Source: Acidimicrobiales bacterium | GTDB taxonomy: Bacteria > Actinomycetota > Acidimicrobiia > Acidimicrobiales > Acidimicrobilacustridaceae | Assembly: GCA_038324235.1 (NCBI GenBank) | Contig: JBBQHT010000026.1 | Span: forward strand, 1-26,564 | DNA length: 26,564 bases | Direction of reading: 5' to 3' | Part shown: piece by piece, positions 5,117 to 22,668 of the stretch | Numbering within the stretch: position 1 is the stretch's first letter | How the letters are laid out: every line of letters begins with the position of its first letter | Made by a program: the position numbers and the translations under genes | Notes under the pieces: model-generated | Databases searched by the model: none | The model's input: the letters and a program-made list of their open reading frames with translations, nothing else | What the model was told of the DNA's origin: nothing

Positions 5117-5182
5117 GTCCAGTTCCTTCGTCTCGAGTAGAAGTTCTCTTCCGCACTACAGGTGGGGTGAACGACCGGTGGG

Positions 5183-5494
5183 TCAGATGCCGAGGATCTG
5201 CGCCTTCTTCGCCGCAAACTCCTCTTCGGTGATGATGCCCTGGTCCTTCAGCCCGGCGAGCTGGGTCAGCTGCTCGATCATGGGATCGACCTCCGCTGCC
5301 GCCGGCGCCGGCGCCGCTTCGGGGGCGGGCGCCGGAGCGGGCGCGGCCGCGGCGGCCGACTGCGCCGCCTTGGCCTCCTGGTTCCGGGCCACCTTGCCCG
5401 ACACCGCGCTCGCCGTTCCCACGACCACCGCGGTTCTGGCAGCCGTACCGACCAATCCGGGACGGCCGACCCGTCCGATGCCACGTCGTCTCAT
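5183..5494 (-). CDS. SHOCT-domain protein, with a short C-terminal oligomerisation domain after an Ala/Pro-rich linker.
   Basis: The C-terminus reads MIEQLTQLAGLKDQGIITEEEFAAKKAQILGI, which matches the SHOCT consensus (..L..L..L...G.ITeeEFe.kKa.lL). A PAPAPAPEAAPAPAA linker precedes it. GAGAGG lies 7 nt upstream of the ATG. The downstream DUF1269 gene is 66 bp away, so an operon is likely. Confidence 0.65.
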   Translation of the reverse strand: MRRRGIGRVGRPGLVGTAARTAVVVGTASAVSGKVARNQEAKAAQSAAAAAPAPAPAPEAAPAPAAAEVDPMIEQLTQLAGLKDQGIITEEEFAAKKAQILGI

Positions 5495-6036: not shown

Positions 6037-7164
6037 ATGAGTCTGCGCACCGCTCGCCCGAGTCCCGGACTGTCGGGGTTGATGGCCTCGCGTCAGACTG
6101 GTCGCATGACTCGACGTGGGGTGGTGCGGTGCTTGGTGGCCGCCGCGCTGTTCGGTGTCTCGACCCCGCTCGCGTCGCGCCTCGTGGGCGACCTCGACAC
6201 CCTGACCCTCGCCGGGTTGCTCTACCTCGGAGCGGGCCTGGCGGTCCTCCCCGCCTGCATCCGCACGCCACCATCACCTGTCGCCCTCCGTCGGAGCTGG
6301 CGACCCTTGACCGTGGCGGTCATCGCCGGCGGTGCGCTCGGCCCGGCGCTGCTGGTCGCGGGCCTCGCTCGCACCGAGCCCACCACGGCATCGCTGCTGT
6401 TGAACCTCGAGTTGGTCGCCACGGTCGTCCTCGCGGCCCTGTTCTTCCGGGAGCACCTCGGCGGACGCATGGTGGTCGCGGTCGGCCTCGTCACCCTCGC
6501 GGGCGCGTCACTGGCGTGGACTCCGGGCGTCGGATTCAACGCTGGGGCCGTGTTCGTCGCTGCCGCGTGCCTGTGTTGGGGTCTCGACAACAACGTCACC
6601 GCCGGCATCGACCATGTCGCGCCTCAGCACATCACGCTGCTCAAAGGCCTGGTGGCGGGAACGGCGAACCTGATGCTGGGACTGGCCATCGCCAGGACCG
6701 CGCTCCCCCCGTTGCACGCAGTGGCGGCGGCCCTGCTGATCGGTGGAGCCGGCTACGGGCTGTCGATCACGTTGTGGGTGCAAGGGGCCCGCGAGCTCGG
6801 GGCCGCCCGCGGTCAGGTGATCTTCGCGACGGCGCCCTTCATCGGGGCGATCGTGGCGTGGCAGATGTTGGGTACACCGATCACCACCGCGGCGGTGCTC
6901 GCGGCGGGGGTGGCGGCCATCGGCGTCGGGTTGGCGTTGCGTTCGGGTCATCACCACGCGCACCAACACGTCGTCATGGACCACGATCACGAGCACAGCC
7001 ACGACGACCCCCACCACGATCATGGCCACGCTGATGGCGTCGCGGGACGCCACAGCCATCAGCACGTGCACGCCGAGTTGGTGCACAGCCATCCCCATGT
7101 CCCGGATCTCCACCACCGCCACCGCCACCATCACGGCGATGGAGCACCGCCGCCCGGTACGTGA
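6037..7164 (+). CDS. DMT-superfamily (EamA-like) transporter with a roughly 70-aa His-rich C-terminal tail.
   Basis: I count about ten hydrophobic helices in an EamA-like duplicated arrangement. The tail reads HHHAHQHVVMDHDHEHSHDDPHHDHGHADGVAGRHSHQHVHAELVHSHPHVPDLHHRHRHHHGD. The start is uncertain: the ATG at 6037 could be replaced by in-frame ATGs at about 6082 or 6106. Confidence 0.65.
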   Translation: MSLRTARPSPGLSGLMASRQTGRMTRRGVVRCLVAAALFGVSTPLASRLVGDLDTLTLAGLLYLGAGLAVLPACIRTPPSPVALRRSWRPLTVAVIAGGALGPALLVAGLARTEPTTASLLLNLELVATVVLAALFFREHLGGRMVVAVGLVTLAGASLAWTPGVGFNAGAVFVAAACLCWGLDNNVTAGIDHVAPQHITLLKGLVAGTANLMLGLAIARTALPPLHAVAAALLIGGAGYGLSITLWVQGARELGAARGQVIFATAPFIGAIVAWQMLGTPITTAAVLAAGVAAIGVGLALRSGHHHAHQHVVMDHDHEHSHDDPHHDHGHADGVAGRHSHQHVHAELVHSHPHVPDLHHRHRHHHGDGAPPPGT

Positions 7165-7245
7165 CGGTGAACGTCACCAGGCCCTCGACATCCTCCTCGA
7201 CAACGCGCTGCGCCACGGCGCCGACCTGAAGCGGCCGTCGGTTGC

Positions 7246-8442
7246 TCAGCCCGTGAACGTGGGCTGCACGTTGAGCGGCGTGGCCGCAGCCGCCGCAGGC
7301 ATCGTCGTCGATGAGGTTGGCAAGGGGGTTGACGACGACGATGACGATGACGGCGGCAGGGCGGGCGTCACCGTGGTCGTCGTGGCGGGGACGGGGGCCG
7401 CAACCTGCACCTTGGCGATGCGGTCGCCCTTGCCTTCGGTGAACCAGAGGTTGCCATCTGGTCCGGGCGCGATCAGGAGCGGGCCGGCTGCGGGAGAGAT
7501 GCCGGTGGCGAACTCGGTCACGACGCCGGAGGGGGTGATGCGCCCGACGCGATCGCCGTTGAGCTCGGTGAACCAAAGGTTGCCGTCAGCGCCGGGGGCG
7601 ATGCCATCGGGCCCGGCTCCGGGAGAGATGCCGGCGGCGAACTCGGTCACGATGCCGAAGGGGGTGATGCGCCCGACGCGATTGCCGTTGAGCTCGGTGA
7701 ACCAAAGGTTGCCGTCGGCGCCGACGGCGATGGTGGCAGGCACGCTGCCGACGTGGATGCCGGCGGCGAACTCGGTCACGACGCCGGACGGGGTGATGCG
7801 CCCGATCCGACTGCCGAGGTGCTCGGTGAACCAGAGGTTGCCGTCGGGCCCTGCGACAAGGCGAGTCGGACCGCTTCCCGCAGTGATTCCAGCCGCGAAC
7901 TCCGTCACCGTGCCGCTGGGGGTGATGCGCCCCATCCGCTCGCCGGCGGACTCGGTGAACCACAGATTGCCGTCGGGCCCCGCCGCAATCCCGTACGGCG
8001 CACTGCCCGCGGTGATGCCCGTCGAGAACTCGGTCACGGTGCCGGTGGGAGTGATGCGCCCGATCCGGTTGCCCGCGGATTCGGTGAACCACAGGTTGCC
8101 GTCGGGCCCCGCGGCGATGCCGTACGGCGCACTGCCGGCGGTGATCCCGGCCGAGATCTCGGTGATCACGCCGGTGGGAGTGGCGTGACCGATGCGGTTG
8201 CCGACCGCTTCCGCGAACCAGAGGTCGCCGTCGGATCCGGTCACGATCCCATCGGGGAACGCACCGGCGGTGATAGCCATCGAGTATTCGGTGACCGTTC
8301 CATCAGCGGCAGTCGCGGCGCCCACTCTCGGCATGGCCACCAGGGCAACGGGCATCACCAAGACGACGGCCGCCCGTAGCAGGTGAACCCGGCGCAGCCG
8401 CGCCAACCCTGACCACGGCCTGGAGACGGGTCCACGGCTCAC
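7246..8442 (-). CDS. Secreted Vgb-like (streptogramin-lyase-type, COG4257) beta-propeller repeat protein. It carries a Ser/Thr/Pro-rich C-terminal region and ends in ...QPTFTG.
   Basis: The N-terminus has a signal-peptide-like hydrophobic segment (RRVHLLRAAVVLVMPVALVAMPRVGAATAADG). Seven or more roughly 43-aa blades follow the pattern TEF..GIT.GS.P.GIA.GPDGNLWFTE..G.RIGRITP.G.V. The tail is TTTTVTPALPPSSSSSSSTPLPTSSTTMPAAAAATPLNVQPTFTG, then the stop. GAGGTGG lies 6 nt upstream of the GTG at 8442. Confidence 0.7.
   Translation of the reverse strand: MSRGPVSRPWSGLARLRRVHLLRAAVVLVMPVALVAMPRVGAATAADGTVTEYSMAITAGAFPDGIVTGSDGDLWFAEAVGNRIGHATPTGVITEISAGITAGSAPYGIAAGPDGNLWFTESAGNRIGRITPTGTVTEFSTGITAGSAPYGIAAGPDGNLWFTESAGERMGRITPSGTVTEFAAGITAGSGPTRLVAGPDGNLWFTEHLGSRIGRITPSGVVTEFAAGIHVGSVPATIAVGADGNLWFTELNGNRVGRITPFGIVTEFAAGISPGAGPDGIAPGADGNLWFTELNGDRVGRITPSGVVTEFATGISPAAGPLLIAPGPDGNLWFTEGKGDRIAKVQVAAPVPATTTTVTPALPPSSSSSSSTPLPTSSTTMPAAAAATPLNVQPTFTG
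7500..7760. repeat. Near-identical tandem repeat inside the first Vgb-like gene, about 129 bp (one beta-propeller blade, 43 aa).
   Basis: The segment 7500..7590 (GCCGGTGGCGAACTCGGTCACGACGCCGGAGGGGGTGATGCGCCCGACGCGATCGCCGTTGAGCTCGGTGAACCAAAGGTTGCCGTC) recurs at 7629..7719 with only a few mismatches, a period of 129 bp. A more diverged copy follows at about 7758. The protein blades '...ITAGSAPYGIAAGPDGNLWFTESAGNRIGRITPTGTVTEF' appear twice almost verbatim. Confidence 0.55.
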
Positions 8443-8594
8443 CTACCACCACCTCAGGATCCGCTCGTTGTGACCTCGGGTCGAGTCGCGCGTCGCGCAG
8501 GTCTGCGGTGACGAAGATAGCTTCATCGGTCGCCAGGATCATGCCGGGCAACCTGAGGGGTCGATTGGCAACATCGGCCGTCCCGCGAGTGCCG

Positions 8595-9755
8595 TTAGCC
8601 GGTGAACGCTGGTGCCGTCTTCACCGCGACCGCGGGTGCGCTGGGCTGAACGGAAGTCGGGGGCGCCGTCGTCGGGGTCACCGTGACCGGGACCGTGGTC
8701 GTCGGCGCCGCGGTCGTCGTGGTGGTCGGGACCGGGGTGAGGTCGAGGCGGCCGATCCGGTTGGACTCGGTGAACCAGATGGCCCCGTCGGGGCCCGCCA
8801 CGGGTGTGGTCGGTTCGCTGTCCGCGTTCGGGAGCGGGTAGACGGTGAGGGTTCCCGTCACGGTCAGGCGGGCGATGGTGTTGCCCACCTGGGCCACCAC
8901 CCAGAGGTTGCCGTCAGGACCGGTGGTGATGCCCTCGAGCACGTCTCCTGCCGCAGCGACGTCGAACTGGTCGGTCAGCACCCCAGATGTCGTCATGCGC
9001 CCGACGTGTTGGCTGGCGCTGAGCGTGGTCCACAGCGCGCCATCAGGTCCGGTGGTGATGTCGAACGGGCCCGAACCGGCGGTGACCGGGAACTCGATCA
9101 AGGTGGCGAGCGGGTCGGGGGTGGCCGGGGCGAAGCGGCCGATGTGGTCGGAGTCCTGTTCGGTGAACCACAGCAGGCCGTCGGGGCCCGCGGTGATGTC
9201 GGTGGGGAAGTTGTCCGCGGTCGGCAGCGGGTACTCGGTGATCGATGCGCCCGGATCGGCGGCCGCGGGATCGATGCGGCCGATCTGGTTGCCGGTGGAC
9301 TCGACGAACCAGAGCGCGCCGTCCGACGCGCTGGTGATGCCGAGCGGGTAGCCGTCCGGGGACGGGATGTCGAACAGGTCGATGGCGCCGGCGGGGGTGG
9401 CCCGGCCGATCTTGTCGCCGAAGGCGTCGTAGGTGAACCAGAGGTTCCCGTCCGCGCCGACCGTGATGCTGTGCGGCTGGCCGCTGCCGGTGATGGGGAA
9501 GGTCGACACCGCGCCCGCGGTGGTGATGCGGCCGATGCGGTTGGCACCCAGCTCCGTGAACCACATGGCCCCGTCCGGACCGACGACGATGTCCGATGCC
9601 CGCACGTCGCCGACGCCGAGGTCGTACTCGGTGATGGCCCCGAAGGCGCCGACCGGCGCCACGGTGGCGCCCGCGATGACGAGGATCGCAGTCAGCGCCG
9701 CCGTCGACACCGCCACTGCTCGTCGGCGAACTGTGCGGGTCTGGTGGTGGCGCAT
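8595..9755 (-). CDS. Second secreted Vgb-like beta-propeller repeat protein, a paralog of 7246..8442. It has a Thr/Pro-rich C-terminal region ending in ...TAPAFTG.
   Basis: The probable start is MRHHQTRTVRRRAVAVSTAALTAILVIAGATVAPVGAFG, a signal peptide, at the ATG at 9755. A GGGAG lies 4 nt upstream. Repeats follow the pattern ITEY.LP....P..IT.GPDG.LWFTE....IGR. The tail is TTTTAAPTTTVPVTVTPTTAPPTSVQPSAPAVAVKTAPAFTG, then the stop. Confidence 0.7.
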   Translation of the reverse strand: MRHHQTRTVRRRAVAVSTAALTAILVIAGATVAPVGAFGAITEYDLGVGDVRASDIVVGPDGAMWFTELGANRIGRITTAGAVSTFPITGSGQPHSITVGADGNLWFTYDAFGDKIGRATPAGAIDLFDIPSPDGYPLGITSASDGALWFVESTGNQIGRIDPAAADPGASITEYPLPTADNFPTDITAGPDGLLWFTEQDSDHIGRFAPATPDPLATLIEFPVTAGSGPFDITTGPDGALWTTLSASQHVGRMTTSGVLTDQFDVAAAGDVLEGITTGPDGNLWVVAQVGNTIARLTVTGTLTVYPLPNADSEPTTPVAGPDGAIWFTESNRIGRLDLTPVPTTTTTAAPTTTVPVTVTPTTAPPTSVQPSAPAVAVKTAPAFTG

Positions 9756-9820
9756 GGGACTCCCGGACATCGATGGAGTGTCAGCCTGCGCCCCGTCGAC
9801 CAAAGCTGCATGAGTAAGAC

Positions 9821-11347
9821 CTACTCATTTTTGGAGACCACTGGTTCGCGCGCGTCAGGTGCTCGGCCCGAGCCGCCCTGCGCGGGGGCGCCGAACCAGC
9901 GCTCGATCGCTCGAGGCAACGTCGCATCGGCGATGTCGCCGACCCAGGCGACGTGCCCGTCTGGTCGGATGAGGACGGCAGGCGGTGCGGTGATCTCGCC
10001 GACGACGGGGAGCTCCCAGACGCCGACGTAACTCGCGTCCACGAACCGGACTCGACCGGCCCACGGCGTGACGTCGAACCCGTCGGACCCCGAGAGGTCG
10101 AGGAGCACCGGGCGGGCGTCGTGCAGGAAGGCGAACATGCGCGTCGGACCGTCGGCTGTCCGCAGGTCGAGATCGGGCATGCGCCGGCCGAGCAGGGGAT
10201 GGTGTCCATCCGCCTCGTAGCAGATGTCGAGCCCGGAAATCGTCCCGGCGATGCACCGCCGGGGCCCGTCCATGGCCAGCAGCTCGGTCACGGTCGCATG
10301 CAGCGCGCGATGGCGGTCGTCGGGAGTGATGAGCGCGGTCTGCGCCATGGTGTTCTCCTGCACGCGGGCGCCCACCGGATGCCGCTCGGCGTGGTAGGTG
10401 TCGAGCAGGCTCTCGGGCGAGGCGCCGTCGACGACCTGGGCCAACTTCCATCCCAGGTTCACCGCGTCCTGCACCCCGACGTTGAGCCCTTGACCACCGA
10501 GGGGGGCGTGAACGTGCGCCGAGTCGCCCGCCAGCAGCACCCGGCCGCGGCGGTACGACTCGGCCTGACGCGTCGTGTCGTTGAACCGCGAGATCCAGGC
10601 GGGACTGTGGGCACCGAAGTCCGATCCGTACGCCGCGACGAGCGCGGCACAGAGGTCCGCCATCGTGGGTTCGGTGGGGTGATCGATCTGCCGTTCCTTC
10701 ACCACGACCCCGTACGGGCCTCCGCCGCCGGGGTTGACGGGACCGATGCCACCGCCCTCGGGCCGGATCCCGAGGGGCGGGTCCTCGGTCATCGCGACCT
10801 CGGCGATCACGAAGCTGCTTGATGGGTCGGTTCCCGGGAAGTCGATGCCCGCGGTCTTGCGGATCAGGCTGCGCCCGCCGTCGCAGCCGACGAGGTACCG
10901 CGCTCGCAGCACCGAGTCGTCGGACAACATGACGTCGACACCGCCATCGTCCTCGATGAAGCCCACCACCTCGCACGCGCGGATGGTCGGGACCCCGAGC
11001 TCTTCGATCCACGCGGCCAGGATGCACTCGAACTCGCGCTGGGAGAGCGCGAGCAGGTAGTTGTGGCGGGTCGGGAAGTCACTGATGTCCAGCGGGATGT
11101 ACGCGTAGCCCACACCGGGGTACGGCTGTCCCTCGGCGAGGAACCGCTCGGCCACCCCCCGCTGGTCGAGCACCTCGATGGTGCGCGAGTGCAGGCCACG
11201 AGAGCGTGGGCTGTCCAGCTCCTGGGTGGCGCGCCGTTCGACGATCACGACGTCCACTCCGGCCAACGCCAGCTCGGCCGCCAACATCATCCCGGTCGGC
11301 CCCCCTCCGGCGATGACCACGGCGGGCTGGATCAGCGGCGCATCCAT
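9821..11347 (-). CDS. Class A FAD-dependent monooxygenase (PHBH-fold aromatic hydroxylase, Rox/RdmE/PgaE-like) with a C-terminal thioredoxin-like domain.
   Basis: Three hallmark motifs are present: the GxGxxG Rossmann (VVIAGGGPTGMMLAAELALAGVDVVIVER), the DG motif (RYLVGCDGGRSLIRK), and the GD/FAD motif (RVLLAGDSAHVHAPLGGQGLNVGVQDAVNLGWKLA). It also carries LLDTYHAERHPV and a C-terminal ...LIRPDGHVAWVGD...LPRAIERWFG that is typical of rifampin-monooxygenase-like enzymes as I recall them. GAGGAG lies 7 nt upstream of the ATG at 11347. Confidence 0.8.
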   Translation of the reverse strand: MDAPLIQPAVVIAGGGPTGMMLAAELALAGVDVVIVERRATQELDSPRSRGLHSRTIEVLDQRGVAERFLAEGQPYPGVGYAYIPLDISDFPTRHNYLLALSQREFECILAAWIEELGVPTIRACEVVGFIEDDGGVDVMLSDDSVLRARYLVGCDGGRSLIRKTAGIDFPGTDPSSSFVIAEVAMTEDPPLGIRPEGGGIGPVNPGGGGPYGVVVKERQIDHPTEPTMADLCAALVAAYGSDFGAHSPAWISRFNDTTRQAESYRRGRVLLAGDSAHVHAPLGGQGLNVGVQDAVNLGWKLAQVVDGASPESLLDTYHAERHPVGARVQENTMAQTALITPDDRHRALHATVTELLAMDGPRRCIAGTISGLDICYEADGHHPLLGRRMPDLDLRTADGPTRMFAFLHDARPVLLDLSGSDGFDVTPWAGRVRFVDASYVGVWELPVVGEITAPPAVLIRPDGHVAWVGDIADATLPRAIERWFGAPAQGGSGRAPDAREPVVSKNE

Positions 11348-11579
11348 GCGACAACTCCTCGGCTCGTGTCCCGGGCCGGGATCGGCGCGGCAAACGAGTC
11401 ATCATCAGCACGGTCCGCTCGTTTGCGGCAAGCCCCCTCCCCCACGTTACGATTCGTACGGCGGCGGGGGGCCGAGGGGCCGACGGGCCCAGGACGATGG
11501 GCGCGCAGGAGCGCCAGCGGAGCCCGCGGCAGCTCACCGTGGGCCGCGCCGAACGCCCGGCTGTCGCTCCCTCAGCTCA

Positions 11580-11933
11580 TCAGCCCTGGCCCAACCGACC
11601 GAGGTGGTTGTCAATCACCGAGGTGTCCCGGATGACCGAGGTGCCGCTGACGGCGATCACGCCGCCAAAGATCACGGACGTGCCCGAGGTGCCGATCGTT
11701 TGTGCGTAGGTCGCTTTCACCGGCCCGTTCTTGCCGACCTGGGCGAAGCCTTCGACTTCGGAGCCGGCGAGGGCCTCTTCGATCTCAGCCACGGTGTCGG
11801 GACGCAGTCCGGCGTCGATCAGCGTGTTGTGCGGGTCGGCGATCAGCGCATCGCGTAGTCCTGGTTCCGCTTCGAGTCGGGCGATGAGGGCATCGGCGTC
11901 GGCTTGGGCTTCGGCTTCGGTGTACACGGTCAT
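11580..11933 (-). CDS. Small protein (117 aa) with an NHLP/Nif11-like leader domain and a Cys-free, Ser/Thr/Gly/Val/Ile-rich repetitive C-terminal region. It is a candidate RiPP precursor peptide.
   Basis: AGGAGG lies 5 nt upstream of the ATG at 11933. The N-terminal half reads EAQADADALIARLEAEPGLRDALIADPHNTLIDAGLRPDTVAEIEEAL. This resembles NHLP/Nif11 leader consensus as I remember it (..LIAKaw.Dp.f...LLaDPkaaLaeaGi.lPegv...). The C-terminal half reads ...ATYAQTIGTSGTSVIFGGVIAVSGTSVIRDTSVIDNHLGRLGQG, with three TSVI motifs (two of them GTSVI), an internal GG, no Cys, and two Arg. The DNA carries the matching direct repeats (ACCGAGGTG three to four times at 11597..11690 on the + strand). It is divergently oriented to the tridomain synthetase 113 bp away. 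Confidence 0.5.
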   Translation of the reverse strand: MTVYTEAEAQADADALIARLEAEPGLRDALIADPHNTLIDAGLRPDTVAEIEEALAGSEVEGFAQVGKNGPVKATYAQTIGTSGTSVIFGGVIAVSGTSVIRDTSVIDNHLGRLGQG

Positions 11934-12046
11934 GGTTTCCTCCTGTCGCGTGTCCGTCCCGACGATCGGGTGCGCCGGGGGTTACACCGCTTCGACAGTT
12001 CTCCGGCGCGGCCGCCGGCGGCGGCGGCGTTGGGTACGTTGTCCAC

Positions 12047-14983
12047 GTGGCACCAGCGACTGATCGATCTGAGGGCGAGACCAGCGAGGAAGACAAAGTG
12101 CGAGCCCGGGTTCGCGCTCGCTGTGATCGCGACGGTGACCGGCAGTGGGCGGTGCACGTCGATCCGTCGGACACCTGGGTCCACGCCCAACCGCTGGACA
12201 CGCGTCTACCGACGCAGGGGTGGAAGCTGCACATGTCAGCGGGGCTGTCGTCGGCCGACGAGGTGCTCCGCAAGGCGCTCGACGTGCTGGTGGACGCGGG
12301 GGTGAGCTTCAAGGTCGCCCGCTCGCGAGCTGTGCTCGACGCCTTGAACTGGGGCTTCGCCGGAGGCAGCCAGATCGGCAAGTTCATGACCGTCTATCCC
12401 GTGGACGACGCGCAGGCGGTGAAGGTCGCCGCGGCGCTGCACGAGGCCACCATCGGCGAACGGGGTCCGCGCATCCCTTCGGACCGGCCCCTCGTTGCCG
12501 GATCGGTCGTGCACTACCGCTACGGATCCTTCGCCACGCGCTACCTGCGTCTCGCGACGGGCGAGGTGGTGCCCGCGATAGAGGACCCCGACGGCGCGCT
12601 GGTCCCCGACGAGCGGCGGATCGCACCACCGAGCTGGGTGGATGACCCGTTCATCCGCGCCGGCGCAGGGGCCCGCGCGCCCGCCGACCCCCAACGATCC
12701 GCGATCGGCGGCCGCTTCGTGTTGACCGGCACGATGCTCCAGACCGCCCGCGGGTCGGTGTTCCTCGCCGTCGACCTCGACGGCCCCCGCCGCTGCATCG
12801 TGAAGCACGCCCGCCGCGACTCGCTGCTCAACGCGCGCGGAGCCGACGCGCGCGACCGGCTGCGAGCGGAAGCCGCGACCCTCGAGCGCCTCGGCGCGGA
12901 TGGTCCCTGGCCGCAACTGCTGGCGCTCGTGGACGACGGCGACGACGTCTACCTCGCGGAGGACGAGGTCCGCGGCACCACGCTGGCGCAGCTCATCACG
13001 ACCCGCATCGCCGCCGGTCGCCACCTCGACCCTGCGGTGATCGTGCGCTGGGGCGTGGCCATCGCCGAAGCACTCGATCGGATCCACGGCCGCGGCCTGA
13101 TCGTCCGCGACCTGAAGGCGGCGAACATCATGGTGGCGCCCGCCTCCCCTGCTGACGACGTCGAAGACTCGGACCGGGCGGAGCAGCCCGGCGGCCCGGA
13201 CCGCACGGACCGCACGGACGGCGAGCGCGAGGTGTGGCTGATCGATCTGGAGTGTGCCGACGCCGGCGCGTCCACGGCCGACGGCACGCTCGGTACCCGC
13301 GGCAGCTGCTCACCTGCGCAACGTCGGGGCGACGCGCCCACGATCGCGGACGACATCTTCTCGCTGGGCGCGCTGCTCTGGTTCATGGCCACCGGCGCAG
13401 ACCCGGCCGCGGCGCCCGACGCCACCGCGCTCGGCGATCGTCAGCTCGGGTGGCTTCGCCCGGAGCTCGGTGAACCGTTGGTCCAGGTGATCACCACGTG
13501 CCTCGCCGACGATCCGCACCACCGGTACCGGGACACAACCGAGGTGGCACGGGCACTGGCCACGACACGCGATCTCGCCGAGCGCCCCTCAGCCCTCCCG
13601 ACCTCGACCGCGCCATCGGCGCCGCGGGTGGGGACAGCCGCGCCCACCAGCCCGACCTCACGAGTCGGCGAGCGCGACCCCGACCTCCACGCTCACCGCG
13701 CGACGGCCGACGCGCCGTCGACGGCGGTGTGGGCGCGCGCCGCCCGGGACATCGGTGCGGTGCTCGTGGAACGGGCCGACCGCCGCGGCGATGATCGGGT
13801 GTCCTGGCAACCGGCATCCGGCGCGCCGCTCACCGATCTCGCCGGTGGCGACGCGGGGGTGGTGCTCGCCCTGAGCGCGTTGGCTCGTGTGTTCCCCGAC
13901 GCCGTCCCCGGTCTCGACGAGGTCATCCACGCGGGCGCTCGCGGACTGCTGCGCGCCCCCGGCTACGGCGGCGACCCCTCCCCTGCGCTCTTCAGTGGCG
14001 AGAACGGGGTCGCGCTCGCGATCCTCGCCGCCGGCACCGTCCTCGCCGAGGCCTCGCTCATCGACGCGGCCGCGGCCTGCGCCGAGACCGCGCGACGGCG
14101 TGCTCACGGTGGCTTCGATCTGCTCGACGGATCTGCCGGTCGCGCGCGCTCGATGCTGTGGTGGCACCAGGCGACGGGTGATCCACGGTGGCTCGACGGG
14201 GCCTGCGTCGCCGGCGAGCACCTCGTCGCGCACGCCCGACCGATGACCCTGGAGGGCGGTCGCGGGTCGGGCCGGTACTGGACGGCCGGTCCGCCCGATC
14301 GCCAGGTCGAGCCCCGCCTGCAGCCGGGGTACGCCGGCGGCGCGGCCGGCATCGCCGACTGCCTGCTGCAGCTCTACGCCGCGACCGGCGACCAGATCTT
14401 CTGCGCGACGGCGTGCGCGGCGCTTCGCGCGGTCGTGGCGGCGGCGGTGCCGGCCCTCGACGGTGATCACGGCATCACCTGGCCCATCGCGGCCGGCGAG
14501 CCAGAGGTGCGGATCGCATGGTGCCACGGCACGACGGGCGTGGCCACGACGCTGCTGCGCGTGCGCGAGCTCGGCCTCGAGACGGGCGCCGCGACCGAGC
14601 TCGATCTGGCCGCCCTTCTGCCCGATGCCATCGATCCCGCGATCGGCCGCGACCTCGACGGGCTGATCACCGCGGCGGCGACCACAGTCGCCGCGGGCAC
14701 GCGGGCCGCGAGCTCCAGCCAGCGCGACGGACTCGCCGGGTCGCTGGAGCTGCTGGTGGACCTGTCGGGCTCCTACCACACCGCCGCCGACCGCGTCGCG
14801 CCGGCGGTCGCCGATCTCGCCGACCTCCTGCTGGCGTTCGTACCGAGCCCCGATCATCCCGATCGGATCGCGCCGGCCTCCGGCTACCTCGACGGGCTGA
14901 GCGGGGTGCTCGCCGTCGCCCTCCGCCTCGCCGCGCCGGCGACGCCGGGTCTGCTGGGGCCGCAGTGGTGGTTCGCCAGCTGA
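12047..14983 (+). CDS. Tridomain class III/IV lanthipeptide-synthetase-like enzyme (LanKC/LanL-type). It has an N-terminal pSer/pThr-lyase-like domain, a central Ser/Thr protein kinase domain, and a C-terminal LanC-like domain.
   Basis: The N-terminus has QGWKLHMSAG...GKFMTVYP, the lyase-domain signature seen in RamC, LabKC and VenL-type enzymes as I recall. The kinase block includes the VAIK-like RCIVKHARRD, the catalytic loop LIVRDLKAANIMV, LIDLECAD, and DIFSLGALLW. The C-terminal LanC-like block has LFSGENGVALAIL, GFDLLDGSAGRARSMLWWHQ, GYAGGAAGIADCLLQLY and IAWCHGTTGVATTLL. The canonical zinc-ligand triad (Cys...Cys-His-Gly) is only partly present: there is no second CHG motif and the GxAHG His is replaced. 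The GTG at 12047 is the first in-frame start. An alternative GTG at 12098 is preceded by GAGGAAG 5 nt upstream. Confidence 0.7.
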   Translation: MAPATDRSEGETSEEDKVRARVRARCDRDGDRQWAVHVDPSDTWVHAQPLDTRLPTQGWKLHMSAGLSSADEVLRKALDVLVDAGVSFKVARSRAVLDALNWGFAGGSQIGKFMTVYPVDDAQAVKVAAALHEATIGERGPRIPSDRPLVAGSVVHYRYGSFATRYLRLATGEVVPAIEDPDGALVPDERRIAPPSWVDDPFIRAGAGARAPADPQRSAIGGRFVLTGTMLQTARGSVFLAVDLDGPRRCIVKHARRDSLLNARGADARDRLRAEAATLERLGADGPWPQLLALVDDGDDVYLAEDEVRGTTLAQLITTRIAAGRHLDPAVIVRWGVAIAEALDRIHGRGLIVRDLKAANIMVAPASPADDVEDSDRAEQPGGPDRTDRTDGEREVWLIDLECADAGASTADGTLGTRGSCSPAQRRGDAPTIADDIFSLGALLWFMATGADPAAAPDATALGDRQLGWLRPELGEPLVQVITTCLADDPHHRYRDTTEVARALATTRDLAERPSALPTSTAPSAPRVGTAAPTSPTSRVGERDPDLHAHRATADAPSTAVWARAARDIGAVLVERADRRGDDRVSWQPASGAPLTDLAGGDAGVVLALSALARVFPDAVPGLDEVIHAGARGLLRAPGYGGDPSPALFSGENGVALAILAAGTVLAEASLIDAAAACAETARRRAHGGFDLLDGSAGRARSMLWWHQATGDPRWLDGACVAGEHLVAHARPMTLEGGRGSGRYWTAGPPDRQVEPRLQPGYAGGAAGIADCLLQLYAATGDQIFCATACAALRAVVAAAVPALDGDHGITWPIAAGEPEVRIAWCHGTTGVATTLLRVRELGLETGAATELDLAALLPDAIDPAIGRDLDGLITAAATTVAAGTRAASSSQRDGLAGSLELLVDLSGSYHTAADRVAPAVADLADLLLAFVPSPDHPDRIAPASGYLDGLSGVLAVALRLAAPATPGLLGPQWWFAS

Positions 14984-15639: not shown

Positions 15640-16371
15640 TCACTCCGCGCGTCGCCGGAACCCCTCGATGATCGCCCGGAGCTGGGCCCCGTTGGTGGCC
15701 ACGGCCGGTGCGTCAGGACCGACCTCCACCGCCTCGGTCCCCCACTCGGTGGCCGCCAGTTCGTCGAACACCGCCCGGGCGATGGCCTGCGCCCTGCTCT
15801 CGGCCTGCACGACCAGGCTGGTGCTCGTCGACGGCGTGCGGGCGATGCCGAGGTGCGGCCACCCGAGCGGCAGGTACACCACGTCACCGGGACGAGCGAC
15901 GCACTCCCAGTCCGGCTCGTGGATCGCCACGACGCCGGCCGACGCGTCCCCGAGCATCCGCCGCCGCCACTGCTGGGGCGGCACCCTCTCGGGTCGAGCG
16001 AGCCACCACTGCTTCACGCCGTCAAGGTGCACCACGAAGTTGTCGCTATCGTCCACGTGGGCCCCGATCGTGCCGAGCCCGGTGGTGCGGACCACGTCGA
16101 ACCAGACCGCGGGAGTACCGAACAGCGCTTCCGCGGCGGTGAGCGCCTCCGCCACCGCGGGGTCACGGATGCCTTCGAGGAACTGGACCTCGCCGTCCCG
16201 ACGGAGCACCGGCGAGTCGCCAGGCCCGGTAGCGGCAAGCACCCACGAATCGATCGTCGCCGAGGAGAGGCCACGCGGGAGCACGTGATCCACACCGCCT
16301 CGCAGCAGCACCGGGGACCGGCGCCAGTGCTGAGCGAAGAACGCGTTGTCGAGGAGGTCGGTCAGGGACAT
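15640..16371 (-). CDS. Cupin-4/JmjC-domain Fe(II)/2-oxoglutarate-dependent oxygenase (ribosomal-oxygenase-like hydroxylase).
   Basis: It reads MSLTDLLDNAFFAQHWRRSPVLLRGG (cupin_4 N-terminus), then GAHVDDSDNFVVHLDGVKQWWL (the HxD facial triad plus the double-stranded beta-helix core), then ...VVYLPLGWPHLGIA (the distal His). The ATG at 16371 was chosen over the ORF-track start at 16527, because 16527 would overlap the strongly supported GNAT start at 16506. Confidence 0.6.
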   Translation of the reverse strand: MSLTDLLDNAFFAQHWRRSPVLLRGGVDHVLPRGLSSATIDSWVLAATGPGDSPVLRRDGEVQFLEGIRDPAVAEALTAAEALFGTPAVWFDVVRTTGLGTIGAHVDDSDNFVVHLDGVKQWWLARPERVPPQQWRRRMLGDASAGVVAIHEPDWECVARPGDVVYLPLGWPHLGIARTPSTSTSLVVQAESRAQAIARAVFDELAATEWGTEAVEVGPDAPAVATNGAQLRAIIEGFRRRAE

Positions 16372-16505
16372 CGGATCGAGGTCGGCGGATTCGGTAACCG
16401 TTTCGGATCGAGAGCGTCCGGTAACATACCAGCCAACCAGCTCCGGTCTCCGCCTTCCGTCGCCTCCGTGGCCGGTTCGGGGCCGGCCGATAACCAGGAG
16501 GTCCC

Positions 16506-17276
16506 ATGGGCCGTGTCCTCGGGTCAACTGTCAATGCCGGCATGAACGCAGCCACCGGCTTCGGGGGCGTCGGCCCCCGCCGGTTCGGTACGCAGTTCGT
16601 TACCCCCCGCGGGATGGGCGGGCCCGGCCTTGCCGCGCAGCCCTTCGGTGGCGCGGACGTGCTCGGGTTCGAAGCAGCGCTGGTGAGCGAGGCGGTGCTG
16701 ACCGGCCGGAACATCGTGCTGCGTCCGCTGAACACAGGTGACCGTGACCACTACTGCGACACCGTCGAGCGCAACCGGCCGCGGCTCGATGCCAGCGGAA
16801 CCGGTCCGGCGCACGAGCAGACCGCCCCCGCCACGCGCGGCGCGTACGACGAGCTCATCGAGCACTACGACCTCCTCCGCTTGCTCGATCAGGGCCATTG
16901 GTTTGCGCTCGTCGACGGCGACGAGGTCATCGGTGAGATCGGGCTCGAGGGCGTGGTGCGCGGCCAGGTGCAATCGGCGTTCCTCGTGCTCTGGGTCGAC
17001 GAGGCCCACGCGGGCCGGTCCCTCGCGCCGGAGGCGTACGTGCTGCTCGCTCGACATGCGTTCGAGGACCTGGGCCTGCACCGCGTGGAGGCCGCCGTGC
17101 TCACCGACAACGAGGCCGTCAGGCGGGCGTTGGCGAAGCTCGACATCCGCAGCGAAGGAGTCTCACCGCGCTACCTGCTCGTCGAGGGCGAGTGGCAGGA
17201 CCACGAGCGCTTCATCCTCACCGCCGAGGAGTGGACGGAGCGACGCGAAGCGCTCATCGCCGAGTGGGTCGGCTGA
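16506..17276 (+). CDS. GNAT-family N-acetyltransferase (RimJ/RimL-like) with an unusual Gly-rich 50-aa N-terminal extension.
   Basis: AGGAGG lies 4 nt upstream of the ATG at 16506. The core reads LTGRNIVLRPLNTGDRDHY...WFALVDGDEVIGEIGLEGV...FLVLWVDEAHAGRSLAPEAYVLLARHAFEDLGLHRVEAAVLTDNEAVRRALAKL, typical of RimL-type GNATs. The N-terminal extension is MGRVLGSTVNAGMNAATGFGGVGPRRFGTQFVTPRGMGGPGLAAQPFGG. Confidence 0.7.
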   Translation: MGRVLGSTVNAGMNAATGFGGVGPRRFGTQFVTPRGMGGPGLAAQPFGGADVLGFEAALVSEAVLTGRNIVLRPLNTGDRDHYCDTVERNRPRLDASGTGPAHEQTAPATRGAYDELIEHYDLLRLLDQGHWFALVDGDEVIGEIGLEGVVRGQVQSAFLVLWVDEAHAGRSLAPEAYVLLARHAFEDLGLHRVEAAVLTDNEAVRRALAKLDIRSEGVSPRYLLVEGEWQDHERFILTAEEWTERREALIAEWVG

Positions 17277-18538
17277 TCCAGCGGCACCTGCTCGTCCTGC
17301 ATCCGCACCTCGTCCCCCACCCCGCCGGCGGCCTGCTCGTCGACAGCACCACCGGCGCCCGGATCACGCTACCGGCCTCGCTGTTGGCGCTCGCGTCCGC
17401 CTTCGTCACACCCGCGGACCCGGAACGGGTCCTCGCGGCTCGGGCGACCGGCGCCGACCACAGCGATGGCCGCTCGCAGCTCGCCGGGCTCCTCCGGCGC
17501 GGACTGCTCGTGTCTGCGTTTCGCCTGCCGCCGCCGCGCATGGGGCTGTTCGACGCGCCGCGCACGACGCTCGCCCAGGCGTTGGCCAGCCCTGGACCGA
17601 TGGTGGTCGTGTGCGCGATGCCCTACGACGCCGGCACGAGCGGTCGACCCGGCACGCGCGACGCCCCGCAGGCCATCCGCGAGGCCAGCACCGACCTGTA
17701 CTGCCACGATCCGCTCGTCCGCGCCGGATGGTGTGATCCCGTCCTCGACCGTGTGATCCTCGAGGGCGTCGGGCTCGCCGATGTCGGCGACCTCGCGCCG
17801 GTCCTTGCGGCGCGCAACGGTCCGTCGTTCGACGCACTGGCGGGCAACGTCGAGCTGATCATCGCGGGCGGGGCGTTCCCCGTCGTGCTCGGCGGGGACC
17901 ATTCCCTCGCCCTCGCCGCCATCCGGGGGGCCGCCCGAGCTCGACCGGGCATCGGCGTGCTGCACCTCGACGCACATGCCGACGTCGATGTCGGCATCGT
18001 GTTCGGCGGCGAGTCCGGGTCCGGGTCGACCCGCGAGCCAACCGCGGACGCATCCGGCGCAAGCGGCGCACCCGACGAAATCAGCGCTGACGATGGTCGA
18101 TCGGACGACTGGTGGCGCACGGTGCTCCACCACGGCAACGTCATGACGTTCGTGGCGGCCGAGCCCAACGTGGCGTCGCTCGTGCAGGTCGGCATGCGTC
18201 AGCGCTCGCCGGTGCCGGTGCCCGTGCCCGCAGGGACCCGACGCCTCCCCGGCGTCGTGGGCGTGGTGGACGTGCTCGCGGCCATGGACCCGAACCTCGA
18301 CTGGTACGTCTCGCTCGATGTCGACGTGCTCGACCCTTCGGCGCTCCGCGGTACCGGCACACCCCTGCCCGGCGGCTTCACCGCACGCGAGCTGGCCGAC
18401 CTGCTCGCCGGTGTCATCGCCGCCCGCACCGTGATCGGCCTCGACGTCTGCGAACTCATCCCGGATCACCCATCCGAGGTGGCGCTCGTCGCCGACCTCA
18501 TCCTCCAGATCCTGGCCGCCGCCCTTCCTCGACACTGA
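17264..18538 (+). CDS. Fusion protein: an N-terminal PqqD-like RiPP recognition element (RRE) followed by an arginase/agmatinase-family (ureohydrolase) domain with a complete binuclear-Mn ligand set. It is a candidate peptide arginase.
   Basis: The arginase motifs are all present: VLGGDHSLALAAI (GGDHS), VLHLDAHADVDVG (DAHxD), and YVSLDVDVLDPSAL (SxDxDxxDP). The N-terminus is ...MVVVCAMPYDAGTSGRPGTRDAPQAIREAS. About 100 aa precede the core: HPHLVPHPAGGLLVDSTTGARITLPASLLALASAFVTPADPERVLAARATGADHSDGRSQLAGLLRRGLLV. This fits the PqqD pattern (..geallld..tg.il.LNetaa.iwelldg..t.eei...la.........a..dv..fl.eL...GLl). The frame has no ATG. Candidate GTG starts are at 17192, 17231 and 17264. The GTG at 17264 overlaps the GNAT stop (GTGGGTCGGCTGA), which implies translational coupling. 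Confidence 0.6.
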   Translation: MGRLIQRHLLVLHPHLVPHPAGGLLVDSTTGARITLPASLLALASAFVTPADPERVLAARATGADHSDGRSQLAGLLRRGLLVSAFRLPPPRMGLFDAPRTTLAQALASPGPMVVVCAMPYDAGTSGRPGTRDAPQAIREASTDLYCHDPLVRAGWCDPVLDRVILEGVGLADVGDLAPVLAARNGPSFDALAGNVELIIAGGAFPVVLGGDHSLALAAIRGAARARPGIGVLHLDAHADVDVGIVFGGESGSGSTREPTADASGASGAPDEISADDGRSDDWWRTVLHHGNVMTFVAAEPNVASLVQVGMRQRSPVPVPVPAGTRRLPGVVGVVDVLAAMDPNLDWYVSLDVDVLDPSALRGTGTPLPGGFTARELADLLAGVIAARTVIGLDVCELIPDHPSEVALVADLILQILAAALPRH

Positions 18539-18696
18539 GCACCTTCGCGCTGCTGGCACGATGGCGCCGCCGCGGCTTCGGCCCCGCGGCTGGTGGAATT
18601 GCTCGCAGGAGCCATCTCCAACCGCGCCGGGCGCCTTCGTTGGAGCGAGCACCCCTGCGCACGGCATCGGTCGCCGCAGCCGATGCCTGGCACCGC

Positions 18697-19860
18697 TCAC
18701 ACCCGGTGGACGTACGCCTGACAGTACGGGCAGTTCGTCTCGGTGGCGCCAGGCGGGAGGGTCATGGTGGCACCACACGATGTGCACGGGATCTCCGCCG
18801 CGCCGACATCGAGCCGCCGGCCACACCCGTCGCAGACCACGATCGTCGCCCCCGACAACTTGTGCAGCTGCCCGCCGCATCCGCCACAACGGCGCGGCTC
18901 GCCCTGCTCCGGCACGATCGGGACGTAGACGTTGGTGAGCCCCGCCCACTCGATGAGCTGGTGGGCCGAGTCTTGCGGCAGAAACGCGATCCAGGCCTGG
19001 CAGAAGCTCGAGCAGGCCAGCTTCGTGTCGAGGTGCGCGGTCTGGTCGGGATTGAGGTCGTTGACACCGAGGTCCTGATTGAGCCGGTTCACCACCTCGA
19101 TCTGGCGCGACAGCGTCTCGCACATCGGCCAGAACGACGCCGGATCGACCGCCATCGGCATCATCGACGTGTAGCGCAGCCCGACGGCGCGCTGCTTCAT
19201 CTCCTCCGTGACCGCCACCGCCGCAGGCTCGAAGGCGGTGACCGCCGCCGCGGCGGCGAGGTAGTCGACCAATCGTTGCCGGTAGGTGAGATCGCCGCGA
19301 GCCCGGTGGGAGAACGAACCTGGGAAGCTGGAGACATACGCGTCGTAGCACCGGTGCTGCAGCGCGAGGTACCCGTCGCGGTCACCCGCGCCCTGCGCCG
19401 CTCGGAGCTGGGCCTGCATGTCGTTCACCCACATGGCGTAACCCAGGTCCGGGGTGGTGGTGCTCTCGCCGGCACGCCGCATGTCGAAGTCGACCAGGGA
19501 GCCGCAATAGTCGCAGTACACGTAGGCGGTGACCGACGCGAGCTTCTTCGGCGCGCCGCAGTTGGCACACGTGCACCGCTTGACGTACCCGGCGGCCGGT
19601 GGCTCGATGATCGCGAGCACGCGGTGAGCCCAGGTCGCGGCCAAGGCCATCGCGTCCACGTTCGCGCCGCCGGTCCCACGCATCGCACCCATGGCGGCAC
19701 GGGCGTGCGGATCGGCATACAACTGGTGGGCGAGGCGCAACCCGTCGAGCATCGACGGTGCCGCCGGCATCGGATGGCCCGCGGCGCTGGTCACCGGTTG
19801 CTTCTTGCGGAACAGCGCCACACGGACCTCCCGGCCGAGTCGAACGGTGACGAATCGCAT
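18697..19860 (-). CDS. Hypothetical protein with three zinc-ribbon motifs.
   Basis: The three ribbons are [11 protein letters not shown]...(15)...[16 protein letters not shown]...(14)...CDGCGRR, and CTSCGATMT...(13)...CPYCQAYV. The probable start is MRFVTVRL at 19860. The ORF-track start at 19980 would add a 40-aa Cys/His-rich extension that overlaps the gadB upstream region. The start is uncertain. Confidence 0.45.
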
Positions 19861-20042
19861 CGACTCTTGCACACGTGGCACGGGCGCACCTCGGCCGGCG
19901 TGCCCCGGTGCGTCCTGCCCGGATATACATTCGGTCGAATGGCACGCGCCACACGCTGTCCGGTGCGCACCGGCCCGCACGTCCGGCGCCAGCCCACGCT
20001 CGACATCGACCTCGCCCCCCTCCAGAACCGAAGGACCTCACC

Positions 20043-21443
20043 ATGACTCTGCACATCCGCGATGCGGTTCGGGATTCGTTGAACGACTCGGTCTTCGCCG
20101 GCCAGAACCTGAACTCGGCCGTCCCGAAGTATCGGTTCCCCGACACCGAGACGAATCCTGACCAGGCGTACCAGATCGTCGCGGACGAGCTCATGCTCGA
20201 CGGCAACTCGCGACAGAACCTGGCGACGTTCTGCCAGACATGGGAGGAGCCGCAGGTCCACAAGCTCATGGAGCTGGCGATCGACAAGAACATGATCGAT
20301 CGCGACGAGTACCCGCAGACCGCGGAGATCGAGCGTCGCGCCGCGCACATGATGGCGGACCTGTGGAACGCACCCGACGCCGCGAACACCGTGGGGTCGT
20401 CGGCGATCGGGTCATCCGAGGCGTGCATGATGGCCGGCATGGCCGCCAAGTGGCGGTGGCGGGCCAAGCGTGAGGCAGCCGGCCTGCCGACCGACCGGCC
20501 GAACATGGTGTGCGGCCCGGTGCAGGTGGTGTGGCACAAGTTCGCCCGGTACTGGGACATCGAGATCCGGGAAGTGCCCATGTCCCCCGGGCACTACGCC
20601 ATGGACGCCACCGACATGCTCGAACGCGTCGATGAGAACACCATCTTCGTCGTACCCACGCTCGGGGTGACCTACACCGGTGCGTTCGAGCTGGTGAAGC
20701 CCCTCGCCGACGCGCTCGATCAACTCCAGGAGAACACGGGCCTGGACATCGACATCCACGTGGACGGGGCCAGCGGCGGGTTCCTGGCCCCGTTCTGCGC
20801 GCCGGAACTCGAGTGGGACTTCCGGTTGCCGCGGGTGAAGTCGATCAGCGCGTCCGGCCACAAGTTCGGCCTGGCCCCGCTCGGCGTCGGTTGGGTCATC
20901 TGGCGCGACGTCGCCGAGTTACCCGACGACCTCATCTTCCACGTCAACTACCTCGGCGGCGACATGCCCGTCTTCCAGCTCAACTTCTCCCGGCCCGCCG
21001 GCCAGATCATCGCCCAGTACTACGACTTCCTGCGCCTCGGGAAGGAGGGCTATCGTCGCATCCACATGGCCTCCTACGAGACCGGCCAGTACCTCGCCGC
21101 GGCGGTACCGCGCCTCGGTCCGTTCGAGCTGCTCTGCGACAGCGACCCGCTCACGGGCATCCCGGCCGTCACATGGCGGATCAAGGAAGGCGAGGATCCC
21201 GGCTTCACGCTCTTCGACCTCGCCGATCGGCTGCGCATGAACGGCTGGCAGGTGCCCGCCTACACCCTGACCGGCGCGGCCGCGGACATCCCGGTCCAGC
21301 GGATCCTGGTACGCCAAGGCGTCAGCCGCGACCTGGCGTCGCTGCTCCTCGAAGACATGCGCGACGCGATCGCCCACTTCGCCAAGCACCCGGTCACCGT
21401 GTCGATGACCAAAGAGGAGTCCAGCGGCTACAGCCACCTCTGA
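20043..21443 (+). CDS. gadB: Glutamate decarboxylase (PLP-dependent).
   Basis: The protein reads [33 protein letters not shown]...[18 protein letters not shown]...[23 protein letters not shown]..., which is the GAD family signature including the PLP-Lys motif S-x-S-G-H-K-F. AAGGA lies about 8 nt upstream of the ATG at 20043. Confidence 0.85.
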
Positions 21444-22292: not shown

Positions 22293-22668
22293 GGGTGAAA
22301 CTCCTCTAGTGTTTGTTGAATGATGTGTCGCCAATCGTAGGCCGCTCCGCCGAACACGCCGCCACATCTGAGGTCGTCAAGCGAGGCGAGCCCGTCAGGT
22401 CGACCGGCCGAACGCACCAGTTCCGGGGGACCGCCCGGGCACCAGAGCTCGTCGCTCAGCTCCCTGGGGGGATCGTGACATGACCCGGCTCGGCGGCCCG
22501 AGGCGCAGGACTCCCACCGGTCGTGGTCTTCCAGCGCGCAGCTGCCGCGGCGAAGCTCTTCGCAAGGCCCCACACAGAACCCTGTGCGAGCGCCAGATCA
22601 TGCTGTACCCTCTCACGATCCCCCATAGCCAAGGGGACTTTGCGTATCGACCAGCTGGGGGTTGCGTC

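Follow-up and report, generated by a model that had tools for sequence, protein, structure and literature searches.

A cysteine-free NHLP-led peptide paired with a LanL-lineage enzyme: a probable dehydration-only cassette in an Acidimicrobiales contig

Contig JBBQHT010000026.1 of an Acidimicrobiales bacterium (assembly GCA_038324235.1), whose 26,564 nucleotides are called here the window, carries on its reverse strand an open reading frame (ORF) of 117 residues at 11580..11933, adjacent and divergent to the gene of an enzyme descended from the class IV lanthipeptide synthetases (LanL). This ORF encodes a genuine precursor of a peptide made on the ribosome and modified after translation (RiPP), composed of a leader homologous to the nitrile hydratase leader peptide (NHLP) superfamily and of a Ser/Thr-rich core region without Cys. 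The enzyme keeps intact lyase and kinase domains and has lost three of the five residues needed for ring closure, a loss that co-varies with Cys-free cores among its relatives. Altogether, the pair is probably a LanL-derived, dehydration-only cassette of two genes, whose product would be a thioether-free, multiply dehydrated hydrophobic peptide.

The precursor peptide and its gene

The elements of the precursor side of the locus are as follows.

11580..11933, reverse strand: precursor peptide gene, 117 amino acids (aa) plus stop, delimited by translation, codon-position GC, homologs and start codon alignment
11745..11933, reverse strand: leader, aa 1-63, a helical NHLP-superfamily domain ending in an invariant EVEGF; ratio of nonsynonymous to synonymous substitution (dN/dS) 0.16-0.20
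11703..11744, reverse strand: linker of variable sequence, aa 64-77, AQVGKNGPVKATY, in which close homologs differ by indels; dN/dS 0.7-0.8
11628..11702, reverse strand: conserved block rich in Ser/Thr and free of Cys, aa 78-102, AQTIGTSGTSVIFGGVIAVSGTSVI, where dehydration is predicted to take place; dN/dS 0.18-0.23
11583..11627, reverse strand: variable tail, aa 103-117, RDTSVIDNHLGRLGQG, carrying the third TSVI unit; dN/dS 0.7-2.1
11597..11691, forward strand: direct DNA repeats (G/C)ACCGAGGTG, three exact copies and one near-copy
11934..12046 (to 12097 with the enzyme start at GTG 12098), no strand: divergent intergenic region between precursor and enzyme, with the same arrangement in nine related loci
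11939..11944, reverse strand: Shine-Dalgarno AGGAGG, 5 nt upstream of the ATG, read from the sequence

The ORF is a real gene because it combines a coding-type codon bias (codon-position GC of 0.69/0.48/0.80, top among the six frames), 10 close homologs in a database of 5.8 billion proteins (E=1e-47 to 6e-14) and low dN/dS values in the leader and the Ser/Thr-rich block, obtained by comparison with the two homologous loci having DNA. Its ATG lines up with the Met of the close homologs and follows the AGGAGG motif already pointed out in a model-generated description of this DNA made without database searches (the sequence-only reading). The translation, MTVYTEAEAQADADALIARLEAEPGLRDALIADPHNTLIDAGLRPDTVAEIEEALAGSEVEGFAQVGKNGPVKATYAQTIGTSGTSVIFGGVIAVSGTSVIRDTSVIDNHLGRLGQG, is identical to the peptide quoted there and has the stated composition: no Cys, three TSVI units (aa 86-89, 99-102 and 105-108), an internal Gly-Gly (aa 91-92) and two Arg (103 and 113), to which a GTS at aa 82-84 can be added. 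Cys is equally absent from the relatives P0002-P0010 (P numbers denote the proteins compared and L numbers the related loci). Among these loci, L001 lies on the JGI contig Ga0604939_0000033 and L002 belongs to assembly GCA_038320935.1.

The direct DNA repeats described in the same reading exist, with three exact copies of ACCGAGGTG inside 46 nt (at 11598, 11617 and 11635) and a near-copy (9/10) of the 10-nt unit GACCGAGGTG at 11682-11691; 0.41 copies of ACCGAGGTG are expected over the entire 26.5-kb window, and the window total of 4 was reached in 0/100 shuffles. Their correspondence with the peptide repeats was nevertheless only partial. The copies at 11617 and 11635 encode T-S-V and the near-copy G-T-S-G, but the copy at 11598 is out of frame (19-nt spacing) and encodes H-L-G, and the first TSVI unit is written with codons other than those of the DNA repeat. 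Consensus scans between 11300 and 12200 found neither promoter nor terminator, including no sigma-70 consensus, and the 3' flank of the precursor gene shows no folding advantage over shuffled sequence (z=-0.8).

Assignment of the leader depends on the family rather than on the window peptide, which by itself gave sub-threshold matches (PF14407 E=0.022, TIGR04509 E=0.035, NF038399 E=0.068) and 13-15.5 bits against cut-offs of 34-48 for the NHLP-clan models TIGR03793, TIGR04509, NF038399 and PF14407, below all of them. Among 51 family members, NF038399 is matched by 45, TIGR04509 by 43, PF14407 by 28 and TIGR03793 by 18. The family profile matches nitrile hydratase alpha (1v29 E=4.9e-8, others 5e-6) and solved precursors of the "NHLP leader peptide family" (9cjx E=2.5e-4, 8tb1 E=9e-4), and for this reason the leader is placed in the NHLP superfamily, as the sequence-only reading had proposed. 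By sequence comparison, it is related to NHLP at the level of the clan and lies outside every curated family. The profile, searched exhaustively through 1.8 billion representatives, returned 40 matches at E<1e-3; when 185,579 GTDB representative genomes were scanned with the family alignment, no relative came up, and a look-up of the window peptide by its exact sequence gave no match. The leader is near-invariant in alignments A1 and A2, and the close homologs together with the profile search define the consensus YTE.QA.ADADAL(I/V)ARLEADP.LR..L..DP..TL..AGL..DTV.E.E.ALAG.EVEGF.

The AlphaFold2 model of the peptide shows four helices at aa 6-55 (predicted local distance difference test, pLDDT, 70-75) followed by disorder at aa 58-117, and Foldseek comparison of this model gave weak matches only (E above 2), with RiPP precursors on top. 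As modelled, the peptide is thus not a globular protein of 117 aa, and the uniform conservation that such a protein would display was not seen, since the C-termini are hypervariable family-wide after the conserved leader. The expected dichotomy of constant leader and hypervariable core consequently holds for the family as a whole but not within the window clade (P0001-P0009), to which the division in four zones applies and in which the core block is itself conserved. This block is made of A, Q, T, I, G, S, V and F only, and its Ser84 is encoded by TCG or by AGT/AGC, the residue being always Ser. The tail position in the relatives reads xPGTSVVPP..GQA in the alignment of close homologs. Moreover, the motif (Q)TIG.SGTSVI is found under three leader subtypes, a recurrence that marks it as a conserved functional element rather than a chance repeat.

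Two suggestions of the sequence-only reading did not survive this comparison. The internal Gly-Gly, taken there as a cleavage signature, is replaced by SG, GN, GR or QS in close homologs and lies inside the selected block, and the conserved end of the leader is EVEGF instead of a motif of Gly-Gly type. Likewise, a multi-core substrate finds no repeated flanking cleavage motif, and the TSVI units are within one selected block. The same reading had proposed checking whether homologs ever contain Cys, and they do: among the 50 members with a recognisable leader end ([ED]V.G[FY]), Cys occurs downstream of the leader in 28 and is missing in 22.

Some members depart from this plan. P0040 (275 aa) and P0038 (174 aa) show two or three tandem leader-like segments, with a Cys-rich segment after every copy in the former and after the first copy only in the latter, and P0027 (487 aa) has seven leader-like repeats; each of the three could be a multi-unit precursor or an unrelated repeat protein. 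On the other hand, P0024 and P0052 (L005 3706-4029) form a branch whose Cys-free core has almost no Ser/Thr (one hydroxyl residue). The 5.5-kb L005 contig carries no LanL, and this branch presumably serves a different maturase.

The partner enzyme and its cyclase residues

The enzyme gene and its domains are the following.

12047..14983, forward strand: enzyme of LanL lineage with lyase, kinase and pseudocyclase domains; GTG 12047 gives 978 aa, and GTG 12098, used in the database gene call, 961 aa
12137..12667, forward strand: pSer/pThr lyase (RamC_N) domain, with K60, H62, K89, K112 and R158 intact
12752..13528, forward strand: Ser/Thr kinase domain, with K253, E275, D355, K357, N360 and D400 intact
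13835..14941, forward strand: LanC-like domain whose active site is dismantled; D691 and C826 remain, G764 stands in place of the catalytic His, and R893-D894 (14723-14728) in place of the Cys-His zinc ligands

The lanthipeptide-synthetase-like neighbour recognised from the sequence alone is indeed such an enzyme, as it contains the Pfam domains RamC_N (1e-53), Pkinase (7e-11) and LANC_like (3e-19). Its best-scoring NCBIfam model is LanL (NF038150), at 500.3 bits with the cut-off of 650 not reached; the LanKC model (NF038151) gave 328.7 bits, also short of its cut-off of 575. The AlphaFold model of the enzyme is confident (pLDDT 89, predicted template modelling score 0.90), and the nearest solved structure, top by sequence and by fold, is CuvL, a trifunctional synthetase (8cav, TM score 0.78), followed by class III enzymes; 8car and 8cav were identified as CuvL through the fold search. 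For these two structure codes and for the Pfam prototype Franean1_4349 nothing was found in the literature searched. The start of the enzyme is ambiguous between GTG 12047, which gives the longest ORF, and GTG 12098, which has GAGGAAG about 5 nt upstream; L001 and L002 show partial conservation of the 17-aa N-terminal extension.

Precursor and enzyme, the latter always with the RamC_N-Pkinase-LANC_like architecture, are adjacent and divergent in 10 loci (window, L001, L002, L004, L006, L007, L012, L013, L014 and L016). No adjacent LanL was found within 8 kb on either side in L003, nor on the short contigs L005 and L015.

An alignment of 89 full-length homologs was used to follow the catalytic residues. 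The K-H-K-K-R set of the lyase is invariant in nearly all of them, with gaps only in P0097 and P0112, and the K-E-D-K-N-D set of the kinase is kept in nearly all. For the LanC-like domain, residue roles were taken from mutagenesis of SgbL (D642, H710, C769, C814 and H815; PMC9292228), and LanCL1 and LicM2 served to verify the columns of the alignment. In SgbL each of these five residues is individually essential for methyllanthionine formation, and the mutants still dehydrate their substrate (PMC9292228). The corresponding D-H-C-C-H signature is intact in about 75 LanL-type homologs of the 89 aligned; in the enzymes of the window, L001 and L002 it has become DGCRD, DSSRD and DSCRD, respectively, so that 3-4 of the five residues are lost. 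These three coincide exactly with the enzymes that have Cys-free GTSVI peptides as partners (3/3 in the immediate clade), and the four intact sister enzymes, P0057 (L006), P0059 (L007), P0060 (L004) and P0058 (L014), each stand beside at least one Cys-containing precursor (4/4).

In a neighbour-joining (NJ) tree LanKC enzymes make up the outgroup and the window enzyme groups within the LanL radiation, and the degenerate clade is nested within enzymes bearing DHCCH, far from class III, which makes the residue loss a derived trait. Its pattern is uneven: R893-D894 is identical in the three enzymes, despite an overall divergence of about 30% and with a synonymous change of the Arg codon (CGC/CGA), and the other positions drift (G/S at 764, C/S at 826 and H/D at 827). 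The pseudo-cyclase domain is still folded in the AlphaFold model (pLDDT mostly >90) and remains under purifying selection, with omega values of 0.33-0.37, those of lyase and kinase being 0.20-0.31. Membership of class III was rejected on the LanKC score (328.7 bits versus 575) and on the outgroup position of LanKC in the tree; the term lanthipeptide, by its definition, was also rejected.

A second and independent loss of cyclase residues was observed elsewhere in the LanL radiation, in P0071 (L008 3651-6476, AIGGY) and P0079 (L009 425-3028, GLGAY). The L008 enzyme adjoins an NHLP-like peptide with 2 Cys, a case that resembles convergence on class III-like chemistry.

Proposed pathway, competing explanations and precedents

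The ORF would thus act as the LanA-like precursor of a two-gene RiPP cassette, in which the 63-residue helical leader, ending in EVEGF, presumably serves to dock the peptide on its divergently encoded partner, the enzyme of LanL descent. The kinase domain is predicted to phosphorylate Ser and Thr of the disordered core, chiefly in the block AQTIGTSGTSVIFGGVIAVSGTSVI, which together with the third TSVI unit would put some 10 hydroxyl residues on offer. The lyase domain would then eliminate the phosphates to give dehydroalanine (Dha) and dehydrobutyrine (Dhb). No lanthionine or methyllanthionine would be possible, because the core is without Cys and the LanC-like domain is without the catalytic His and two of the three zinc ligands, and the retained pseudo-cyclase domain is probably a scaffold or a substrate-binding module. 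Leader removal would fall to a protease encoded elsewhere. From these features we infer the dehydration, the residues modified, the leader cleavage and a bioactivity of the product. The dehydration-only option had been raised in the sequence-only reading, and it gains support from a partner that has lost cyclase residues in precisely the Cys-free clade.

Several points weigh against this scheme. Dehydration is deduced from conserved residues alone, and cyclisation by LanKC enzymes of class III proceeds without zinc ligands (PMC7268733), so the loss of ligands does not prove by itself that cyclase-type chemistry was lost. The degenerate enzyme is found in three loci only; its invariant R893-D894 could mean a new function instead of decay, and the degenerate P0071 of L008 adjoins a 2-Cys peptide. 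A relative without Cys, P0051 (L003), has no LanL in the 8 kb flanking it on each side, and no protease or exporter gene is nearby. Finally, the window is a contig of 26.5 kb, and a Cys-bearing partner peptide or a small-molecule thiol may be encoded elsewhere in the genome.

The Arg-Asp pair is at the centre of the explanation in which the LanC-like domain has gained a new function, catalysing or templating a non-thioether reaction (an O- or N-Michael crosslink, a hydration or an isomerisation) towards a new crosslinked RiPP. The conservation of R893-D894 despite the ~30% divergence, the well-folded domain under purifying selection and the precedent of class III cyclase domains working without zinc (PMC7268733) all fit with it. 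Against it, positions 764, 826 and 827 drift as in decay, omega exceeds that seen in the lyase and the kinase domain, and the block, limited to A, Q, T, I, G, S, V and F and flanked by Lys and His that are not conserved, leaves hydroxyls as the sole obvious nucleophile; this explanation is quite unlikely. The amine-crosslinked product contemplated in the sequence-only reading loses ground in the same way, as neither Lys nor His is conserved, and a lysinoalanine-type crosslink was rejected for the lack of a conserved Lys.

A different possibility, which we judge very unlikely, is that the Cys-free peptide represents half of a two-component or trans system, joined to or acting with a Cys peptide or a low-molecular-weight thiol from elsewhere. 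It draws on L014, where an intact LanL lies between a Cys-rich and a Cys-free GSGTSVI precursor, and on L004, with a 1-Cys and a Cys-free precursor in tandem. Six-frame profile searches of the window, L001 and L002 revealed no second precursor, however, and one would expect the cyclase residues to have been retained in an enzyme that still closed rings on a partner peptide. The cassette could also be a decaying relic, drifting to pseudogene after loss of Cys from the substrate and leaving no functional product, in line with the piecemeal loss of catalytic residues, the GC content at third codon positions of the leader (0.74, lower than in typical genes of the window) and the rarity of a family absent from the 185,579 GTDB representative genomes. 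That outcome is highly improbable given that both reading frames are intact in three lineages at a synonymous divergence (dS) of ~0.4-0.6, that omega is 0.16-0.37 on the leader, the core block and all three enzyme domains, and that lyase and kinase residues are intact. Scarcely credible is, finally, a small helical regulatory or immunity protein linked by chance and not serving as a substrate: the members without adjacent LanL in L003, L005 and L015 speak for it, but not the NHLP-superfamily homology, the disordered and hypervariable C-terminal half, the divergent arrangement typical of LanA-LanL in 10 loci, nor the co-variation between Cys content of the peptide and active site of the enzyme.

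A broader proposal, judged unlikely, would see here a distinct and so far undescribed RiPP type born from class IV machinery, in which NHLP-led, Cys-free (Q)TIG-SGTSVI cores are dehydrated at several residues by LanL enzymes with a conserved Arg-Asp pair at the former zinc site, and the LanC-like domain serves as a non-thioether modifier or a dedicated substrate chaperone. It includes a two-component ancestry from which this clade kept the unringed component, an ancestry suggested by the intact-enzyme loci L014 and L004, where a Cys-free peptide of this kind would be a second substrate next to a true lanthipeptide.

Returning to the dehydration-only cassette, its relation to known systems can be defined at several levels. 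With class IV (CuvL-curvocidin, SgbL-globisporin and VenL-venezuelin) it shares an enzyme made of an OspF-type lyase, a Ser/Thr kinase and a LanC-like domain, as well as the minimal cassette of precursor plus synthetase; it differs in the D-G-C-R-D of the window enzyme versus the D-H-C-C-H of SgbL (PMC9292228), in the absence of Cys from the precursor and in the 63-aa NHLP-type leader domain. The class III LanKC enzymes ThurKC, CurKC and PneKC, second-best as structural matches, have the same domain order and a cyclase without zinc ligands, but they are phylogenetically distant and their substrates carry Cys to form lanthionine or labionin, whereas the window core has neither Cys nor a motif of Ser/Ser/Cys type.

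The nearest precedent in function is CcaM, the LanMbC enzyme of dehydrazole, which acts on the NHLP precursor CcaA and whose zinc-free, non-catalytic cyclase domain is still needed for dehydration, no lanthionine being formed (PMC10676384). Both cases combine a synthetase-derived enzyme, a zinc-free cyclase domain and an NHLP-type precursor, and the CcaM product is rich in dehydro-residues without lanthionine, as predicted here. CcaM differs in its class II (DUF4135) dehydratase, in the prior formation of azoles by YcaO and in its independence of the leader; within the window, no YcaO, radical SAM or DUF4135 genes were found.

Precursors of the NHLP and Nif11 groups, such as those of proteusins and the prochlorosin-type 'cyanotins' with ProcM-like LanM, share the leader homologous to nitrile hydratase alpha and the hypervariable core, and some cyanotins are Cys-free (PMC7268733). 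The window system departs from them in its LanL-type partner, which is not LanM, YcaO or radical SAM, in a leader that ends in EVEGF and not in Gly-Gly, and in lacking a C39-peptidase ABC exporter, no peptidase or ABC exporter gene having been found within the window. As for the product, linaridins such as cypemycin and legonaridin are linear peptides rich in dehydrobutyrine, with or without Cys, and thus similar to the type predicted here. Their biosynthetic machinery is unrelated, and the scanned neighbours in the window include no linaridin-type genes.

The lineage can be regarded as a natural counterpart of the SgbL cyclase knockouts, in which Cys and the ring-forming residues were lost, kinase and lyase stayed intact and the pseudo-cyclase fold is kept under selection. 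The predicted product, an unringed peptide with several dehydrated Ser and Thr, would be a little-explored variant of a known pathway. Three questions follow: what role a LanC-like domain plays once rings are no longer made, whether class IV machinery naturally yields linear poly-dehydro peptides and how LanL enzymes recognise NHLP-type leaders. No description of NHLP-led LanL systems, Cys-free LanL substrates or LanL with lost cyclase residues appeared in the literature searched, which leaves many subscription journals uncovered. In this regard, the RODEO survey of lanthipeptides dropped every ORF without Cys by design (PMC7268733), and Cys-free systems of this kind are filtered out of surveys because large-scale mining discards Cys-less precursors. 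The results point to an NHLP-led class IV clade, mostly metagenomic, without a characterised member, and heterologous expression should be simple because the cassette has only two genes.

Related loci and neighbouring genes

The precursor-enzyme pair is the only association kept in the loci compared, with no other conserved neighbour and, in particular, no conserved protease or exporter gene. Its organisation is most elaborate in L014, where an intact LanL (EHCCH, P0058; 2181-4904, reverse strand) is flanked by two different precursors, both on the forward strand, at 1816-2154 and at about 5001-5354. The Cys-rich one (...SNCCGHN) is on the divergent side of LanL, and the Cys-free one, of a second leader subtype and ending in ...GSGTSVIAQATYAQTVSGSYGRTFWYG (GSGTSVI...GRTFWYG core), is convergent with LanL and ends 27 bp from its stop; the two could represent a two-component arrangement. 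In L004, tandem precursors at 6435-6770 and 6758-7186 stand beside one intact LanL, P0020 having one Cys and P0028 none. More distant LanL enzymes of the clade adjoin Cys-bearing precursors of NHLP type as well, two in L010, one in L011 and one in L008. The Cys-free P0051 (L003 8001-8345), which contains ...SGGTSVIVGPSISTYLPTGSI..., is located on a 1.3-Mb contig and is divergent to the genes of an extracytoplasmic function (ECF) sigma factor and of a LytR_cpsA_psr protein.

Downstream of the peptide gene, the window carries the following genes.

9821..11347, reverse strand: Rox/PRK06834-type flavin adenine dinucleotide (FAD) monooxygenase, directly downstream of the peptide and on the same strand
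8595..9803 and 7246..8442, reverse strand: two Vgb (streptogramin B lyase) family genes, paralogous to each other, at 195-228 bits versus a cut-off of 600

By their look, these three genes (7246..11347) form a trio of antibiotic-resistance type. They are not counted in the system because they are absent from L001 and L002. The chemistry of Vgb is a beta-elimination at Thr, and a tailoring role of the Vgb-like genes is conceivable. Just upstream of the monooxygenase start lies a 12-nt inverted repeat (11387-11398 and 11418-11429, GCGGCAAACGAG and CTCGTTTGCGGC, 92% complementary), which may be an operator, with the monooxygenase then regulated apart from the peptide.

Beyond the enzyme, positions 15640..21443 hold a cluster of JmjC-domain, GNAT, arginase-family and pyridoxal phosphate (PLP)-decarboxylase genes, and three large ORFs of the window (86-1384, 1351-2238 and 22480-24495) have no family match; neither the cluster nor these ORFs are conserved in the related loci. 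A gene of the RibD_C family (NADPH reductase-like) adjoins the pair in L002 (10409-11062), L004 (8113-8754) and L007 (3878-4468), but not in the window or L001, and its product could conceivably reduce dehydro-residues.

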